DNA of 64,000 bases, taken from the IMG/VR virus record IMGVR_UViG_3300015606_001334, positions 64,001 to 128,000 of that record. The stretch is one strand, 5' to 3'. The DNA comes from a virus. Taxonomy: Duplodnaviria; Caudoviricetes. Below, piece by piece: positions 1-56,023 of the stretch (the stretch's first letter is position 1; every line of letters begins with the position of its first letter). Under the pieces are notes generated by a model that searched no databases, was not told the origin of the DNA, and saw only the letters and a list, made by a program, of their open reading frames with translations. The position numbers and the translations under genes were made by a program.

Positions 1-376
1 TCACATCCTTCTGTGATTCCAATAGGGTCTTCTCAATAAAGTCTCTTACACCTTTGATGTGTATCACTTCATCCAAAGTGTAATCTTCGATGTCATAACC
101 TAGCATGGTAGTCAAAGAGTAAAACAGGTTTTGCGCAACTGATTCGATATCTCCATAGGTTTTTCCACCTAATTGGAAGATGATCTTTTTGAATTTTCGG
201 TCGTTAACCCGCTCAACAATCTTAATTTCGTATTGAGAAACCTTCATACCATGGACAGGCTTGCAAGATTGCTGCGTGATAAAGAAATCGTAAATCCACC
301 CAGTGTTATTCACAATGGTGTCTTGATCTAGATTCTCAATCTCATCATCAATCTTCGTTCTTGGTGCAGAAATCAT
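1..376 (-). CDS. hypothetical protein, runs off window edge
   Basis: ATG at 376 overlaps the upstream TGA (ATGA coupling); frame MISAPRTKIDDEIENLDQ... is open to position 1. Confidence 0.7.
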   Translation of the reverse strand, partial: MISAPRTKIDDEIENLDQDTIVNNTGWIYDFFITQQSCKPVHGMKVSQYEIKIVERVNDRKFKKIIFQLGGKTYGDIESVAQNLFYSLTTMLGYDIEDYTLDEVIHIKGVRDFIEKTLLESQKDV

Positions 377-693
377 GTATGCTCAATAATCTTGATAGGT
401 GTAGCCTTTATGCCGTCAAAGCAAATTACGCAAGGTTCCGCTGGAAGTGGTTCACCATTTGCTCCATATCTGAAAATTACCATTTTGTAGGCCTTTGAAA
501 TATCTCGGCATTTATTGATTGCATCAATTTCTGCGTGGAGAAATATTCCCTTTTCTTTGCCTACTCGCTTAGCGTGATGAGCCTGCCTTGGATGGGTCTT
601 TACGTAGGAGTTCTTTCCTATACTGAGAATTCTTCCACGTTTATCGTAGATGATTGCGGTGAGGTCGTATTGTTTTCTTGTTTTTCTGCACAT
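373..693 (-). CDS. zinc-dependent cytidine/dCMP deaminase-fold protein
   Basis: HAE...PCxxC motif (FLHAEIDAI...AEPCVIC). Confidence 0.8.
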   Translation of the reverse strand: MCRKTRKQYDLTAIIYDKRGRILSIGKNSYVKTHPRQAHHAKRVGKEKGIFLHAEIDAINKCRDISKAYKMVIFRYGANGEPLPAEPCVICFDGIKATPIKIIEHT

Positions 694-1142
694 TCAAAGT
701 CTAGCTTTGCTTCTTCTAATAGTTTTAGACCTGCTTTGAGGTTGAAGTTTTCGTCAATCGTAAGATCATCAATTCGTTCAATTAACACCTCAATAGCTTT
801 CTCAATGAAGCTATTGGCTTGGGTGTCAGTAAAGTCATCAATGTTGACCATCATCTGACCGATGTCAAATTCTTCTCCAGGAACTTCCTTAAGGAAATAC
901 CAAACCTTTATCCCTAGGATCTGGACAACTCCATCTTTTCCTATGATTGGATGGAACTTGAATCGTACTCCGTCGGAGTTAATGACAGTTCTCTTAAATA
1001 CTAGCATAGATGAAGAAAGGATTGCTAAGTCTTTAGGCAAAGTCATTGGTTGAACGCCAACAATCTCTTGCGCAATAATACCTGGCAAGATTCTCCGAAT
1101 CTTCGGTATCAAAATCGACGGATTCACCGACGCTTCTTCCAA
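618..1142 (-). CDS. hypothetical protein with N-terminal T4 gp23-like (Gol-region) segment
   Basis: ILIPKIRRILPGIIAQEIVGVQPMTLP resembles the RR..P..IA..I.GVQPM..P motif of T4-type major capsid proteins; the rest is unrelated. Confidence 0.65.
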   Translation of the reverse strand: MEEASVNPSILIPKIRRILPGIIAQEIVGVQPMTLPKDLAILSSSMLVFKRTVINSDGVRFKFHPIIGKDGVVQILGIKVWYFLKEVPGEEFDIGQMMVNIDDFTDTQANSFIEKAIEVLIERIDDLTIDENFNLKAGLKLLEEAKLDFECAEKQENNTTSPQSSTINVEEFSV

Positions 1143-1930: not shown

Positions 1931-2617
1931 TTACCAAAGTAAATCAAAGTTTCCTGCGAGGACCTTTGACGTCAAATGCTTCTTTCCTGTCTGATGATCT
2001 TGAACCACGTCATCTTGGAAACGATACGTTCTGATCTTATCTCCTCTCATTCCTGAACCAACTTGACCTTTACGATCAGCCATTGTGATTGAGTAATGCT
2101 CACTTTGGGCTGATGAGTCCAATCTCTTGTTGAGTTGGCTCATTGCTTCAGCTAAGGAGTTTTCACGGCTTCTACATTGGGCGGTCTCTACCAATCCTGT
2201 AGGAAGATGGGTAATTCTTGCTGAGTTCTGGTGCTTATTACGGTGTTGTCCACCGGCTCCAGTACCAGAGTACCATTCAATTTTGAAGTCTGATTCAGAC
2301 CGTTTGTGGAATTTCTCAGAACTCTTGTCGTTGCAATCAATGACTGCGACAGTTACGGTTGAGGTATGAACTCGACCTTTACGTTCTGTTGGTGGAACTC
2401 TCTGGATTCGATGTCCACCTGATTCATTTTTGAGTTGGTTGAAGAACTCTTTGCTACACTCTATTTCTAGAGTTGTTACGCCGGGTACCTCAACCTTTTT
2501 AGGATTGAGTCAACCGACGCGATTAAGGAACTTAGAGTAAGCTTGAGCAAGGTCCTTAACGAACAACTTGCTATCGTCACCGCCTTCAGCGGCTCTAATT
2601 TCGATCTTAATACGCAT
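1931..2617 (-). CDS. prfA: RF1-type peptide chain release factor lacking domain 1, with in-frame TGA at codon 36 (2510-2512); readthrough gene or pseudogene
   Basis: AAGGAG SD + ATG 2617; EIRAAEGGDD..LF..DL, ESGGHRIQRVPPTE (PxT), GRVHTS, GAGGQH (GGQ), RGDKIRTY; same frame on both sides of the TGA. Confidence 0.85.
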
Positions 2618-2627
2618 GATTTTCTCC

Positions 2628-3236
2628 TTAAAACGTATTTAGTTTATCAAAGCTATCTGCAAACATTTCTAAGCAGATTAAGTTACTACCTTTTGGCTGA
2701 CCTGGTAATGAGTTATCGTACATTCCATAGAAATCATCAAGTTGTTCTATCAAAAATCCTGTAAAACTCTGGCCATCAAAAAACTTGGAAAGATCAAATT
2801 TAAATTTCTCTTTCGACCTAATGTTGAATCCTGCAATGTCATCCTTAAATCGAGGGTCGGCAACGATAGACCTTATGAAGTTTTGTCCATCTTTAAATAC
2901 CGCTCCACCAACGAAGACTGACTTCTTCATTGACATCTTAAACCAGTACAAGAAAATTTTTGCGATCTTTTGGTTTCTAAATTTTGGAGTAATTAAAATT
3001 TTCTCTAACGAAAGAATTTCGTCAACTTCTTTAAACTGCAAGAACCCCACAAATTCATCATCGATTGTAAACATTCCAACATTTGTCTTATCCGCTAGTA
3101 GAAGCTTAAATTTATTTCCTTCGATTTCTTGAATGAGCTTCCCATTAGATCGAAAATATTCTTCCACACCATCAAGTTCTTTTTGTGAATGATTTATTTC
3201 TGTATCAACTTTTAGGGCGAGCTCAGTTAGCTTCAT
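2628..3236 (-). CDS. GNAT-like fold protein, possible head-packaged protein
   Basis: LEKILITPKFRNQKIAK resembles GNAT motif A; MKLTEL N-terminus. Confidence 0.5.
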   Translation of the reverse strand: MKLTELALKVDTEINHSQKELDGVEEYFRSNGKLIQEIEGNKFKLLLADKTNVGMFTIDDEFVGFLQFKEVDEILSLEKILITPKFRNQKIAKIFLYWFKMSMKKSVFVGGAVFKDGQNFIRSIVADPRFKDDIAGFNIRSKEKFKFDLSKFFDGQSFTGFLIEQLDDFYGMYDNSLPGQPKGSNLICLEMFADSFDKLNTF

Positions 3237-5467: not shown

Positions 5468-5542
5468 TGGAGACCGTAGAGGGAATCGAACCCTCGTTAT
5501 CGGATTTGCAATCCGGTGCACTAACCACTCTGCCATACGGTC
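5468..5542 (-). tRNA. tRNA-Cys(GCA)
   Basis: cloverleaf, loop TTGCAAA, GGTTCGATT, T-CCA end. Confidence 0.9.
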
Positions 5543-5597
5543 TGGCGTTCTTATTTAGAATCAACCAAATAGGAACAAAATTTATTGGATAGCTTTA

Positions 5598-5709
5598 TGA
5601 AGCTAATACGGTGCTTGAATCCGCGGTAACCCTACTCTTCCTGGGCCTTCATGACATCTGCCGGCTAGCATGTCACTCTTATCGGTTATCCAGTGTAGTT
5701 ACTATTAGC
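5598..5709 (-). ncRNA. tRNA-like structured RNA (7-bp terminal stem, long irregular arm, T-arm-like hairpin)
   Basis: GCTAATA/TATTAGC, GTAAC/GTTAC, CTGG/CCAG, TGACAT/ATGTCA, CGG-ATTCAAGCA-CCG, 3' TTCA. Confidence 0.55.
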
Positions 5710-5710
5710 T

Positions 5711-5784
5711 TGGCAAGGGTGGAAGGTAATGCTCCTTCTTCCTCTGGTTCAAAGCCAGATACTTTACTTTTAAGCTACACCCCA
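5711..5784 (-). tRNA. tRNA-Gln(TTG), atypical T and D loops
   Basis: TCTGG-CTTTGAA-CCAGA; T-loop AGCATTA; G-CCA end. Confidence 0.75.
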
Positions 5785-5790
5785 ATTGTT

Positions 5791-5974
5791 CGCGGAGTTT
5801 TTGCAATCCTCATAGTTCGATAAGCTCAGAGGAAGACTGTAAATTCGTAAACCCAAACTCCCTAAGGCTTGTCGATCAATCATTCCGGCTTATCGTCCAG
5901 AACAAAGGACCTATACGAATATTCGACGGAATTATTTTTCGGTTCAATGCGCATTGACCGAGTTTGGTTCCGCC
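5791..5974 (-). ncRNA. ~185-nt pseudoknotted RNA between tRNA-Pro and tRNA-Gln (manA-motif-like candidate)
   Basis: GCGGA/TCCGC closing stem, CCAAACTC/GAGTTTGG, GTCGA/TCGAC, crossing helices ATTCGTA/TACGAAT and GATAAGC/GCTTATC. Confidence 0.6.
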
Positions 5975-6051
5975 TGGTCTCGCTGGTAGGATTCGAACCT
6001 ACGAAATCCTGTTCCCAAAACAGGTGGTATAGACCACTAACCGACAGCGAG
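5975..6051 (-). tRNA. tRNA-Pro(TGG)
   Basis: CCTGT-TTTGGGA-ACAGG, GGTTCGAAT, A-CCA. Confidence 0.9.
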
Positions 6052-6086
6052 ATATTTTGCCATCTTTCGACAGCAAATTGTAAAAC

Positions 6087-6383
6087 TTAGCCTTCGAGAC
6101 CTAGCTCGTCGACATAAACTTCATCATTTTCTTTGTGGAAGATCTGATGAGTGTTGCGCTGATCATTGAGAATTGTTTCTCCTCTTCCACTCATTTCGAT
6201 CGAAATCACTTCACCAGTAAATTCGATGATTTCAGCAAATTGAGAAGCGTTTTCAACGTACTCGTATGCTTGCTTTGGATCATTGAAAACACGGTAAGTT
6301 GGACCATCGCCATCGTTGTTGATGCCAAGATAACGCTTACCAGCTGATTCGCTGATCTTGATCATTTCTTGTAGAAATTTCAT
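6087..6383 (-). CDS. late hypothetical protein inside tRNA array, probable internal head protein
   Basis: true start MKFLQEMIKISE at 6383 (the track's start lies inside tRNA-Arg); TATAAATA at 6406-6413. Confidence 0.6.
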   Translation of the reverse strand: MKFLQEMIKISESAGKRYLGINNDGDGPTYRVFNDPKQAYEYVENASQFAEIIEFTGEVISIEMSGRGETILNDQRNTHQIFHKENDEVYVDELGLEG

Positions 6384-6405
6384 TTTGGAACCTTTCAGAA
6401 AAAGG

Positions 6406-6413
6406 TATTTATA
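6406..6413 (-). promoter_or_regulatory. T4-type late promoter TATAAATA (representative)
   Basis: exact TATAAATA also at 7044-7051, 32370-32377, 55919-55926, 57306-57313; NATAAATA variants at 13014-13021, 53129-53136 and 45054-45061 (+). Confidence 0.7.
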
Positions 6414-6415
6414 TT

Positions 6416-6493
6416 TGGCGCCCTCGGAGAGATTCGAACTCCCGACTTCTTGTTTCGAAGACAAGCACTCTAGTCCAACTGAGTTACGAAGGC
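6416..6493 (-). tRNA. tRNA-Arg(TCG)
   Basis: CTTGT-CTTCGAA-ACAAG, AGTTCGAAT, G-CCA. Confidence 0.9.
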
Positions 6494-7014
6494 ATGTTTA
6501 ATATTTCATCAGTCATATGTCGCGAGATAAATCTTTTGACTTGAGTATGACTAATTCCTAATTCTTTACTACATCGAGTAACCCAACCCCAGCCAGTAGC
6601 AGAGTGCCTTCTTACTGCATCCTTATAGGAGTTTAGTTTCTCTTTTGAATATTGTCTACCAGCAGATGGTTTGCCCTTTCTTCTAGAAGCTATCATCTCC
6701 TTTGCCTTCTCTTCACCGTATTTCATTTTCATACGGTCGTTGAATGACAAGTACGTTCCAGCTTCTTTTTGATCGAGGTGATTATCTGTTGGAGTTCCCC
6801 AATACAAATGATTGGGGTTACTGCACTTTTCATTATTGCATGCATGACACAAATAAATTTTTGATCCTCTAGGGATTGTTGTATCTAAGAAATCAGCTAG
6901 TAATCCCCTGAATTCTTTTGAGTAACCTCCTCGTTCGATACAATTTTCTTCTAGACTGAGATGGGAACGTCTTTCTTCTCTACTTAGATTGATGTACTCA
7001 TTTATGTCTTGCAT
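6484..7014 (-). mobile_element. free-standing HNH homing endonuclease in tRNA array
   Basis: LCHACNNEKCSNPNHLYWGTPTDN HNH motif, C-terminal HTH-like segment, late promoter; stop codon lies in the tRNA-Arg 5' end. Confidence 0.75.
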
Positions 7015-7061
7015 TTTGAACCTTTAACTAAGAATGTATTTCCTATTTATAGGTTCAGATT

Positions 7062-7139
7062 TGGCACCGCTAGGGGGACTTGAACCCCACCCCTCGAGAG
7101 TGACAGTCTCGCATGCTCAACCATTAACACTATAGCGGT
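7062..7139 (-). tRNA. tRNA-Asp(GTC)
   Basis: CGAGA-CTGTCAC-TCTCG, GGTTCAAGT, G-CCA. Confidence 0.9.
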
Positions 7140-7229
7140 GTAGAGGAACGTTTTAGGCCTTTCAAACGTTCAGAGAATATTTAGCCGGACCTGACTTGCA
7201 GGTAAACCTTCCCTTGACTGATTTCAGGC

Positions 7230-7550
7230 TCAGTGAACCTTAATTTTCGGCAAGGCCGCAATAAGCGCCTTTTTCAAATTCTTGTATTTCGGCTTATCAG
7301 ACATGAGTTGAATCACTTCGTCAAGATCAACACCGTGTTCTGATAGATGTTTTCTGAAATTGCTACGACGATTGTACTCACTAGCCTGTTTTACACAAGC
7401 ATAGCATTGAGTGCGGTTCTTAAGACGAACTGCGCCACAAGTAATGCATAGATCCTGTGCTTTCCGGAAAGCACGAAGTTTACGATTGCTTACTGCTTGC
7501 GGAGTATCGGAGTTTTTGCCTTCTGAACGAAGATCTTGAGTTTCAGCCAT
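7230..7550 (-). CDS. zinc-finger protein
   Basis: CITCG...CYAC; own early promoter at 7579-7608. Confidence 0.6.
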   Translation of the reverse strand: MAETQDLRSEGKNSDTPQAVSNRKLRAFRKAQDLCITCGAVRLKNRTQCYACVKQASEYNRRSNFRKHLSEHGVDLDEVIQLMSDKPKYKNLKKALIAALPKIKVH

Positions 7551-7613
7551 TTTGTTCTTCTCGCTTTGAAAAAGTTAAATTATAACTTCAAAACGAGAAG
7601 ATGTAAACTGTTT

Positions 7614-8015
7614 TTATATCTTGAAATACTGGAATTCTACATAAGACTCAATTTCAGGAGGTTCCTTCAACATGATTTGAGTCTCAGTGATTTCAACATA
7701 AGCTTGTCTTGGTAGTTTTCGTCCATTGACAAAAACGAGGACTGAGTCAGTATGCATCACGTATGGAACATCAAGAGTAAACATCTGTTTGTCTTTGACA
7801 TCAATGTAAAATTCTTGACAGATCATTTTCCAAGCTGGCAGATCACCTAATGCTTTGTTCCAAATACCGTTTGCTTGAATGTAAAGTCCCTTCTTAACAG
7901 GATCCTTGCAATAAATGATTTGACCTTCTTCGAAGATGCCGTACTCAGGAACTTCATCATAGACTGGAATCTTAACCAGGTTTCTGATGACCTCTTCATT
8001 CGCATAAACTCTCAT
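7614..8015 (-). CDS. hypothetical protein, possibly virion-associated beta-sandwich module
   Basis: FTL..PY....SVLVFVNG..L....Y.E pattern seen in phage baseplate/tail proteins; AATAAATA upstream. Confidence 0.45.
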   Translation of the reverse strand: MRVYANEEVIRNLVKIPVYDEVPEYGIFEEGQIIYCKDPVKKGLYIQANGIWNKALGDLPAWKMICQEFYIDVKDKQMFTLDVPYVMHTDSVLVFVNGRKLPRQAYVEITETQIMLKEPPEIESYVEFQYFKI

Positions 8016-8055
8016 TTGTTTCTTCCTTATAGTTATGGATGAGATATTTATTGAT

Positions 8056-8129
8056 TGGCAGAGCGTGAGGGAATCGAACCCCCATCTGCGGACTTGGAAA
8101 CCGTTATGTTACCACTACACCAACGCTCT
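8056..8129 (-). tRNA. tRNA-Trp(CCA) with weakened anticodon stem
   Basis: ACGGT-TTCCAAG-TCCGC (A27:C43 and U31:U39 unpaired), U11-A24, G73-CCA. Confidence 0.75.
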
Positions 8130-8135
8130 ATATTT

Positions 8136-8210
8136 TGGTACTCCATACGGGATTTGAACCCGTCCGCCTACCTTGAAAGGGTAGTGACCTAACCGCTAGT
8201 CTAATGGAGT
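8136..8210 (-). tRNA. tRNA-Glu(TTC)
   Basis: CTACC-CTTTCAA-GGTAG, GGTTCAAAT, A-CCA. Confidence 0.9.
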
Positions 8211-8213
8211 ATA

Positions 8214-8285
8214 TGGCCCGCGGAAGAGGAGTCGAACCTCCAAGGCCAAGATTCGTAGTCTTAGCTCCATCCATTTGGCCCGCGG
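8214..8285 (-). tRNA. tRNA-Arg(ACG), reduced D arm
   Basis: TAAGA-CTACGAA-TCTTG, GGTTCGACT, G-CCA. Confidence 0.75.
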
Positions 8286-8293
8286 ATTTTTGT

Positions 8294-8371
8294 TGGGGCG
8301 ATCGACGGGACTTGAACCCGCAAGTACCTGATTCACAGTCAGGTGTGTCTACCAATTCCACCACGATCGCC
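8294..8371 (-). tRNA. tRNA-His(GTG) with encoded G-1
   Basis: CCTGA-CTGTGAA-TCAGG, G-1:C73, CCA. Confidence 0.9.
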
Positions 8372-8388
8372 ATAGTGAAAAATAAATC

Positions 8389-8475
8389 TGGCTAGGGAGG
8401 AAGGAGTCGAACCTTCACAAAGGCTTGCGCCGACAGAGTCAAAGTCTGTTGCTCTACCAGTTAAGCTACTCCCCA
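8389..8475 (-). tRNA. tRNA-Gln(TTG) with long variable arm
   Basis: ACAGA-CTTTGAC-TCTGT; V-arm GGC-GCAA-GCC; G-CCA. Confidence 0.85.
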
Positions 8476-8481
8476 ATTATT

Positions 8482-8585
8482 TGGCGGCGGATCAATTAAC
8501 CCAAACCTAGTCTAACCAACCGGCCGATTGGACTCGTCTATTGTGAGGGAAATTAGAAGAAGCTAGCATTCTAACTTAACCCGCC
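8482..8585 (-). ncRNA. CCA-terminated non-cloverleaf RNA
   Basis: GGCGGGTTAA/TTGATCCGCC terminal stem + G-CCA; internal hairpins TTAGAA/TTCTAA and CCAATCG/CGGTTGG; no T-loop or anticodon arm. Confidence 0.55.
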
Positions 8586-8660
8586 TGGTGCCAGCGATTG
8601 GTAACGATCCAACCTCTCAAGATTTTCAGTCTCGCGCTAATCCATCTCAGCTACACTGGC
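8586..8660 (-). tRNA. tRNA-Phe(GAA), atypical T-loop
   Basis: CGAGA-CTGAAAA-TCTTG; T-loop ATCGTTA; A-CCA. Confidence 0.85.
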
Positions 8661-8669
8661 ATTAAAATT

Positions 8670-8745
8670 TGGTGCACCCAGTCGGAATCGAACCGACGCT
8701 ACCATGCTCTTCAGGCATGTGCTCTACCAACTGAGCTACAGGTGC
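8670..8745 (-). tRNA. tRNA-Phe(GAA)
   Basis: CATGC-CTGAAGA-GCATG, GGTTCGATT, A-CCA. Confidence 0.9.
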
Positions 8746-8750
8746 ATATT

Positions 8751-8826
8751 TGGCACTGCGTACGGGTTTCGATCCCGTTGCCTCTACCGTGACAGGGTAG
8801 CGCTCTCCCAATTGAGCTAACGCAGT
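8751..8826 (-). tRNA. tRNA-Asp(GTC)
   Basis: CTACC-CTGTCAC-GGTAG; T-loop ATCGAAA; G-CCA. Confidence 0.88.
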
Positions 8827-8833
8827 ATTGATT

Positions 8834-8917
8834 TGGTACAGCGTGGGGGAATCGAACCCCAGCCCGAAGGCGGTACCTTGAAAGGGTACTGACCGTTACC
8901 AGCAGTCGACACGCTGT
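8834..8917 (-). tRNA. tRNA-Glu(TTC) with long variable arm
   Basis: GTACC-CTTTCAA-GGTAC; V-arm GCC-TTCG-GGC; A-CCA. Confidence 0.82.
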
Positions 8918-8934
8918 ATTAAAGATTGCTTAGG

Positions 8935-9009
8935 TCGGAGTGAGAGGATTTGAACCTCCGTCCTCCTCCTTCCAAGGGAGGCCGTCTACCAGGCTGACAT
9001 TACACTCCG
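8935..9009 (-). tRNA. tRNA-Pro(TGG), CCA not encoded
   Basis: CCTCC-CTTGGAA-GGAGG, GGTTCAAAT; ends A-CCT; flanked by a 12-bp inverted repeat. Confidence 0.82.
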
Positions 9010-9030
9010 CCTAAGCAATCTCTTTACTTC

Positions 9031-9438
9031 TTAAACTTCTTTGATTCTTCGAGCTAAGCTTCGATAACCATATCCAGCAGGGTGGATCTTGTCCTGGCTT
9101 AATTCTTGAACCTTTATCTCAATAGTCTTATCACCGTTTTTACTGGCGAGTTCCTCAACTATCTTTCTCTGTACAGGCTTGATACTCTTGCTTGGTAAAA
9201 TCCAAACAACCTGACCTGTAATGGAGCTTCTCAGCTTTTCTAGTGCTTCAAGAGTTTTGATCTGTTTGGTATCGTTTGTCCCAAGGCTGATAATCGTCAT
9301 TGGCAACTTCATGTTGAAGTCATGACGTTTAACGAAATCCTCAGAATTTATACCAGACTTTGCGTTTGCTTTGCATTCATGCATTACATTCGAAAGACCA
9401 TAAGCAATTGAGTCACCAATAATTAAACATTCAAGCAT
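9031..9438 (-). CDS. SGNH/GDSL hydrolase-like protein
   Basis: IIGDSIA, SLGTND, DKIHP blocks. Confidence 0.75.
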   Translation of the reverse strand: MLECLIIGDSIAYGLSNVMHECKANAKSGINSEDFVKRHDFNMKLPMTIISLGTNDTKQIKTLEALEKLRSSITGQVVWILPSKSIKPVQRKIVEELASKNGDKTIEIKVQELSQDKIHPAGYGYRSLARRIKEV

Positions 9439-9461
9439 ATTTTCCTTTTCAGTTTAAGTAA

Positions 9462-9536
9462 TGGTGGTGATGGCGGGAGTCGAACCCACTTGGTACTCCT
9501 TATGAGGGAGGCGCATAACCGTTCTGCCACATCACC
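9462..9536 (-). tRNA. tRNA-Met(CAT) (Ile2 not excluded)
   Basis: CCTCC-CTCATAA-GGAGT, GGTTCGACT, A-CCA. Confidence 0.85.
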
Positions 9537-55891: not shown

Positions 55892-55951
55892 TCATTTTAC
55901 TCCAAACTCCTTTAGATTTATTTATAGAATGAGGAACAAAATGTTACCGGG

Positions 55952-56023
55952 TGGGTAATGTGGGGATCGAACCCACGACCCGCGGATTTAGAATCCGCTG
56001 CTCTACCATTGAGCTAATTACCC
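55952..56023 (-). tRNA. amber suppressor tRNA (anticodon CTA), CCA not encoded
   Basis: GGGTAAT/ATTACCC, GCTC/GAGC, GCGGA-TTCTAAA-TCCGC, GTGGG-TTCGATC-CCCAC, A73; own early promoter at 56040-56069. Confidence 0.9.

Follow-up and report, generated by a model that had tools for sequence, protein, structure and literature searches.

A short class I release-factor gene of the RF1 type, carried by a huge phage of the Caudoviricetes, is interrupted after 35 sense codons by an in-frame UGA, and this gate is present in each of the 134 distinct phage genes of the family that were pooled (134/134 gated, 0 ungated). Since every phage relative keeps the stop and relatives in bacterial genomes have a prfB-style frameshift at the same spot, the comparison indicates that the UGA is maintained by selection and is a built-in control point rather than damage. 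We hold, with somewhat more belief than doubt, that the factor is gated by programmed UGA readthrough, probably inserting tryptophan, and that its supply would depend on how RF2 and tRNA-Trp are balanced. The gene lies in the window, that is, the whole stretch of 64,000 nucleotides analysed here, which corresponds to bases 64001-128000 of a 359,550-bp IMG/VR phage record (43% G+C, 45 tRNA genes, one tmRNA).

The release-factor gene occupies positions 1931-2617 of the window (minus strand, like all its parts given below) and has 228 codons if the TGA at codon 36 is decoded. Its ATG at 2617 stands 3' of a Shine-Dalgarno sequence AAGGAG (2624-2629) which, on direct reading of the sequence, overlaps the TAA of the upstream ORF (2628-3236). 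The 35 pre-gate codons (2513-2617) encode the start of release-factor domain 2, with the motif AEGGDDSKLF, and alone would yield a 35-residue peptide. They are followed by the TGA (2512-2510), which has GGT (Gly) before it and C after it and aligns to a conserved Trp of RF1. The same frame continues through a PPT tripeptide (2387-2395), read from the sequence as the PxT-type RF1 stop-codon recognition motif within QRVPPTERKGRVHTS, and through the GGQ peptidyl-tRNA hydrolysis motif (2246-2254; invariant in alignment A3) to the TAA terminator (1933-1931), with a terminator-like hairpin and T-run (1901-1926) immediately 3' of the gene. All elements of the layout proposed by the sequence-only reading, namely the Shine-Dalgarno sequence, the TGA and a single frame leading via PPT and GGQ to the TAA at 1931, are confirmed on the sequence. 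No other gene of the 359.5-kb genome has a release-factor domain. The upstream ORF was considered as a possible split-off domain 1 and rejected, as it does not correspond to that domain.

The read-through product matches the Pfam families PCRF (84.8 bits, cut-off 24) and RF-1 (68.6 bits, cut-off 35), the former only in its C-terminal half (profile positions 102-194), and its best NCBIfam match is prfA (199 bits, under the 400-bit equivalog cut-off). When the product is aligned by HMMER with solved RF1 chains, the TGA falls on the conserved Trp (E. coli 'ARRW', T. maritima 'RKGW'), in agreement with the position originally assigned to it; QRVPPTERKGRVHTS then faces the PxT region, and the two GGQ motifs coincide. 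The RF1-type determinants are present, both QRVPPTE..GR.HTS, flanking Q..HT residues included, and GGQ. The similarity to RF1 begins only at about residue 106-114 in the profile alignments and at about residue 112 in those with solved chains; domain 1 is therefore absent. The AlphaFold2 model (pLDDT 91) has ribosome-bound RF1 as its best Foldseek match (TMq 0.82-0.84, E = 5e-20, domains 2-4). Taken together, these comparisons identify the product as a domain-1-less RF1-type class I release factor which, judging by its motifs only, should read UAA and UAG but not UGA. PPT is kept in 83/83 aligned phage relatives. The recognition tripeptides PET, PPN and SPT replace PPT in some phage relatives (L282/L378, L298, L330, L301, L379), and L411 and L413 have PVT; such variants may correspond to an altered stop-codon specificity.

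The previously suggested likeness to rescue factors of the PrfH (RF-H) and ArfB types holds in part. These proteins are also GGQ-bearing release-factor homologues without domain 1. Nevertheless, the product scores 39.9 bits with the PrfH equivalog model (TIGR03072), against a cut-off of 166.65, and no RtcB, the partner of PrfH, was found in the 359.5-kb genome; ArfB for its part is devoid of the codon-recognition domain, which is intact here. Nucleotide and protein searches of GenBank phages returned no close relative, and NCBIfam has no model for this release-factor family.

The conservation of the gate in phages was studied by protein-guided scans of IMG/VR, which gave 94 loci and 83 distinct genes with pairwise identities down to 42% (median 68%). 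The codon aligned with the gate is TGA in 83/83 of them. In the pooled set of 134 genes the stop is always UGA, never UAA or UAG, and it is located at the Trp codon in 131 cases, four codons downstream in 2 (with TGG at the Trp position) and in a shorter variant in the last one. A census of IMG/VR with one degenerate DNA pattern (short, with a fixed gap, ending in GGN-TGG or GGN-TGA) retrieved 4 matches for the TGG form and at least 119 for the TGA form. Of the 4 TGG matches, three are unrelated DNA. The remaining one, L255, does belong to the family: it has TGG (after GGA) at the Trp codon and, four codons on, GGT TGA CTC. A relative that is only 50% identical, L376, is organized in the same way. 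The position of the gate can thus shift; the Trp codon is then TGG again, and the stop remains a UGA.

Both sides of the stop evolve as coding sequence. Before the TGA, pS is about 0.74 and pN 0.21 (pN/pS 0.29), and in the 60 codons after it the values are 0.70 and 0.21 (pN/pS 0.30); since they are alike on the two flanks, both parts are coding and belong to one frame. The check that had been proposed, i.e. conservation of the TGA together with purifying selection on its two sides in homologous phage release factors, thus has a positive outcome. Reinitiation after the UGA was also considered. The first in-frame ATG, GTG or TTG past the TGA is found 4 to 148 codons downstream, often beyond both PPT and GGQ, and no restart codon is conserved; given this variable position, reinitiation cannot account for the conservation of the TGA and was rejected. 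One frame coding on both flanks and no conserved restart support the earlier claim that synthesis of the full-length protein needs UGA readthrough. The phage copies keep a single frame across the stop and have neither a CUU nor an SD-like element (the window has GGT TGA C), so that the phage gate is one of readthrough and not of frameshifting.

Public protein sets contain versions of 222-232 residues with a W at the gate, all on contigs of about 1-2 kb; within the same protein clusters, long contigs give pieces of 35 aa and about 166 aa, as table-11 gene calling yields. Because the full-length 'W' proteins are gene calls from short contigs, they are no evidence for TGG and were rejected as such. 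This affects annotation: automatic gene calling either breaks the gene into products of 35 aa and about 166 aa or, on short contigs, saves it by a wrong choice of table 4. A search of viral contigs with the query P0119 gave no match.

The codon that precedes the gate in phage genes is nearly always Gly (GGC 92, GGT 36), and the +4 base of the 134 genes is A in 96, G in 25, C in 13 and U in none, whereas U occupies this position in 30% of the genuine TGA terminators of these genomes. A +4 U is reported to strengthen termination and lower readthrough, and tRNA-Trp of E. coli to misread UGA most readily before an A (PMC5289835); by these context effects, the gate would have a leaky stop context. 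The UGA-C context emphasized at the outset is indeed that of the window gate, but it is in the minority in the family (C in 13/134) and specific to a lineage.

To collect relatives in bacterial genomes, prokaryotes were scanned with a profile, each species being represented by one genome; this gave 80 loci (L406-L485), which were sorted by the reading frames of their N-terminal EGGxD[AS] part and their PPTE..GR.H part. Fifteen have an in-frame TGA, located at the Trp codon in 10 (e.g. Thalassospira xianhensis, Jiella sp.), two codons past it in 1 (L433) and about 11 codons downstream in 4 (e.g. Variovorax sp. and a Cupriavidus plasmid). Another 49 require a +1 shift, at CTT TGA C (32), CTT TGA G (7) or CTT TAG C (10), and in 42/49 of these an SD-like run (GGAGG-, GGGGG- or GGGAG-like) lies within 15 nt upstream. 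The shift would take place at the codon equivalent to the Trp or else some 11 codons further on (Thiobacillus denitrificans; Achromobacter anxifer, 'RGYL-stop'). Homologues with a frameshift also occur in Myxococcota, in five Nannocystis species and Minicystis rosea (e.g. L470:3001-3661, L434:3001-3661 and L435:3001-3685). Four bacterial-genome relatives are ungated. The neighbours of the Nannocystis and Thiobacillus copies had no Pfam or PHROG matches.

In the tree of 110 members, a phage-type half with readthrough is separated from a bacterial-genome half with mostly frameshifting (SH-aLRT = 99 for each). The tree needs at least 18 changes of gate state and 8 changes of mechanism, and 106/110 members are gated. 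Some of the 'bacterial' loci are phage DNA: L410 and L427 adjoin phage-type genes, and L417, from a 'Gammaproteobacteria' MAG, has a release-factor gene identical to that of L088, an IMG/VR phage contig of the same length (144,978 bp). The L088/L417 pair appears to be a phage contig binned into a MAG.

From its sequence, the element at the frameshift loci (SD-like run, short spacer, CTT TGA C) is recognizable as the prfB cassette, and prfB is among the closest known systems. In both systems, a class I release-factor gene is cut early by an RF2-specific UGA and the yield tracks termination efficiency, or would do so here. The phage genes differ from prfB in the continuous frame and in the lack of CUU and SD-like element already described, in the position of the gate, which is in domain 2 and not in domain 1 as in prfB, and in their product, which is of the RF1 type and should not read UGA, so that the loop would not be self-closing. 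A survey of >12,000 genomes (2025) found prfA without recoding and TAG never in the prfB motif (PMC12421855). For some members of the family, classical autoregulation is suggested by the relatives with a UAG-gated frameshift.

Under the favored readthrough hypothesis, most ribosomes would terminate at the UGA via the host RF2 and release the 35-residue peptide, while others, in a proportion that depends on how Trp-tRNA(Trp) (from the host or the phage, or a suppressor) competes with RF2, would read through and complete the factor. UGA readthrough is known to reflect this competition and to rise with tRNA-Trp overexpression or dose (PMC10570021). The inserted residue would probably be Trp, the ancestral residue at this position. 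More of the factor would be made whenever RF2 capacity drops or tRNA-Trp increases, and the product could take over termination at UAA and leave RF2 available for UGA; sharing of the load in this way would be the simplest benefit. A shortage of RF2 might arise, for instance, after host shut-off during the long infection of a huge phage, and 59% of the long ORFs of the window genome end in TAA. An RF1-type factor is unable to read UGA, so that the gate would not be closed by its own product; nor can such a product itself relieve termination at UGA, which leaves the benefit of an RF2-dependent gate a matter of argument. The bacterial relatives that carry a prfB-type CUU-UGA-C cassette at the same place lend added plausibility to the sensing of RF2 activity. 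Yet, it cannot be the whole story for the family, because ten frameshift relatives use UAG.

Several other scenarios may explain a conserved UGA, and two of them, a constitutive attenuator and a switch timed by phage tRNA, would fit the sequences almost as well as load-sharing readthrough. In the first one, the UGA would do no more than limit a potentially harmful release factor to a few percent of what the mRNA could yield, with no response to RF2 or tRNA-Trp. Overexpressed release factors do reduce fitness (PMC12421855), no stimulatory structure is conserved around the gate (see below), and a conserved leaky UGA would leave the same sequence signature as a sensor. Nevertheless, a weak Shine-Dalgarno sequence or promoter would do the same without a strictly kept stop, the relatives use the prfB cassette, a known responsive device, and the stop is always UGA in phages, which points to a specific reader. 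We consider an attenuator of this kind rather unlikely.

In the second scenario, the gate would open only when a phage tRNA-Trp with a Hirsh-like D-arm, or a UCA suppressor, accumulates, and the release factor would be a delayed gene. The window does encode a tRNA-Trp (CCA) (8056-8129, minus strand) 5.5 kb from the gene, with a U11-A24 pair, G73 and a weak anticodon stem, which can be proposed as a candidate reader of the gate. Its U11-A24 is presumably the pairing made by the Hirsh UGA-suppressor mutation. It belongs to an array of 14 tRNA genes (5468-9536, minus strand) about 3 kb from the release-factor gene, and a release-factor gene is found 0.1-4 kb from the tRNA array in 5/6 complete genomes of the group. 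The 524-kb relative G002 has no tRNA-Trp(CCA); it has a 77-nt tRNA(UCA) with G73 and a Trp-like anticodon arm (genome position 190515-190591, L225-L251), and TGA makes up 36% of its long-ORF stops. The effect of tRNA-Trp dose on UGA readthrough (PMC10570021) and the precedent of Mimivirus, whose tRNA-Trp is Hirsh-like (PMC3521657), also favor this scenario. Contrary to it, the complete relative G001 keeps the gate with neither tRNA-Trp nor tRNA(UCA), the D-arm pair of the phage tRNA-Trp genes is variable (U-A in the window, U-G or C-G elsewhere in the group), and the frameshift gates of the bacterial-genome relatives do not require a tRNA of this kind. Because G001 has no tRNA-Trp, the dependence on the phage's own tRNA-Trp that was initially imagined is not general, and we regard a gate timed by phage tRNA as distinctly unlikely.

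A third possibility is that the short factor itself reads UGA (and UAG) despite its RF1-like motif, i.e. that it is a bacterial-type, domain-1-less factor of broad specificity, which we find quite improbable. If this were the case, the UGA readthrough, CUU-UGA and CUU-UAG gates would all be true negative feedback, as in prfB and the Mimivirus factor, and the huge phages would carry this factor, near-complete tRNA sets, tmRNA and suppressor tRNAs to control their own termination. In the window genome, the tmRNA gene (tag ANDESYRVAA) is found beyond the window, at 156013-156450 of the genome. As to suppressors, positions 55950-56023 of the window (minus strand) encode a tRNA with a CUA anticodon, an amber suppressor labelled 'Pyl' by ARAGORN, and one or two tRNA(CUA) occur in 5/6 complete genomes (all but G002), which have the standard code and TAG as their rarest stop (5-12% of long ORFs). 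The RF1-type factor of these phages should compete at UAG with such an amber-suppressor tRNA.

An alternative genetic code, in which the phage or its host would read UGA as Trp (table 4) or Gly (table 25), is very improbable. The position of the TGA on a Trp and the full-length 'W' proteins of public sets could be taken to favor it, but the latter are on contigs <2 kb and, as described above, give way to two pieces on long contigs. In the window genome, TAA ends 220 long ORFs, TGA 131 and TAG 21; TGA is thus the stop of 131/372 long ORFs, and table-11 ORFs span 95% of the genome. The comparison was extended to six complete genomes, i.e. the window genome and five complete relatives of 350-524 kb, across which TGA terminates 31-52% of long ORFs. 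When all the 10,328 in-frame stop junctions of these genomes were compared with each other, the TGA of the release factor was the only one aligned stop-to-stop in at least three genomes, and it is aligned in 6/6. The absence of a second conserved in-frame TGA and the use of TGA as an ordinary stop led us to reject a genome-wide recoding (table 4/25). Moreover, the other Trp codons of the window protein (W115, W228) are TGG, which is not used at the gate codon save in the relocated-gate genes L255 and L376. By these sequence comparisons, the recoding is gene-specific and not the product of an altered genetic code. Another 29 in-frame stop junctions are aligned stop-to-stop in exactly two genomes, 15 of them with TGA only; they are probably for the most part adjacent genes or antisense frames.

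The RNA around the gate was also studied. The hairpin CUCAA-U-CCU-AAAA-AGG-UUGAG that had been noticed after the UGA exists and is part of a longer stem-loop enclosing the stop (2520-2478, minus strand), but it is not family-wide, since this stem-loop is restricted to the window and its closest relative, L002. The window fold (71 nt, -20.8 kcal/mol, z = -2.8) is matched in stability by 2/200 shuffles. RNAalifold recovered no consensus structure from 50 representatives, a 14-pair hairpin of the major clade is formable in 88% of cells but has 0 compensatory pairs and is not above shuffles, and dips comparable to the one near the UGA in sliding-window folding (z about -1.1) recur in other parts of the gene. 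In the absence of consensus and covariation, a conserved stimulatory hairpin was rejected. Conservation at synonymous sites peaks at codons -4 to +11 round the UGA (0.64-0.77 vs 0.46 overall) and again near codon +140 (the peaks reaching 0.71-0.77 vs 0.46 overall), and neither peak is explained by covarying structure. The insertion of selenocysteine, directed by a hairpin that directly follows the window UGA as a bacterial SECIS would, has a practically negligible probability: this hairpin is not conserved in the family, ARAGORN detects no tRNA-Sec in the window genome, the position is that of a conserved Trp, and the gate is found at other codons too. Finally, the alternative of a pseudogene or a sequencing error, a single base away from TGG and already envisaged by the sequence-only reading as a TGG>TGA change, is ruled out by the comparative data, with 134/134 phage genes gated and purifying selection on both flanks.

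Further parallels to this family come from other viruses. The release factor of Mimivirus and Megavirus (R726/mg280), together with prfB the closest of the known systems, is also a viral class I factor whose translation needs the recoding of internal stops, in that case UGA-C readthrough and a CUU UAG/UAA C frameshift, both in one gene; the UGA is thought to insert Trp, and the tRNA-Trp of the virus has a Hirsh-like D-arm adenine (PMC3521657). Contrary to the phage factor, this protein is of the eRF1 type (eukaryotic/archaeal) and omnipotent, so that its gates can be autoregulatory, and it is described in two amoebal giant viruses rather than a large phage family. The A1 protein of Q-beta is likewise a phage product obtained by reading of UGA by tRNA-Trp, in this instance the normal one and at low frequency (Weiner and Weber 1973, as reported in PMC5289835). 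The Q-beta stop ends a functional coat protein that readthrough extends, whereas the part before the stop is here a 35-residue fragment, and a functional product would be possible only from readthrough. The 'Jade' phages resemble the phages studied here in having an RF1 beside tRNA genes and genomes that manipulate stop-codon reading; they read TGA as Trp genome-wide, and their RF1-bearing code-change module is described as being in standard code (10.1101/2021.08.26.457843). In our case the genome uses the standard code and the TGA is confined to the release-factor gene.

Textbooks describe recoding as a means of release-factor control for RF2 only. According to recent surveys, RF1 lacks such control (PMC12421855, PMC1586002), and a literature search for this release-factor family or its gates found no description of either. 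An RF1-type family that is present in hundreds of huge-phage contigs and in many genomes of Myxococcota and Proteobacteria thus turns out to be almost always gated, by a gate that has switched many times between readthrough and +1 frameshift, between positions (Trp codon, +4, +11) and between UGA and UAG, and has nonetheless persisted. This makes it possible to test the sensing of termination capacity by cells and phages, as well as the role of a release factor deprived of domain 1. Two further observations concern other parts of the window. A 174-aa ORF (618-1142, minus strand) resembles in its first 38 residues the N-terminus of a T4 Gp23-type major capsid protein, a weak match of 25 bits, and a small ORF (373-693, minus strand) has a sub-threshold match to cytidine/dCMP deaminases (23.8 bits, cut-off 25).
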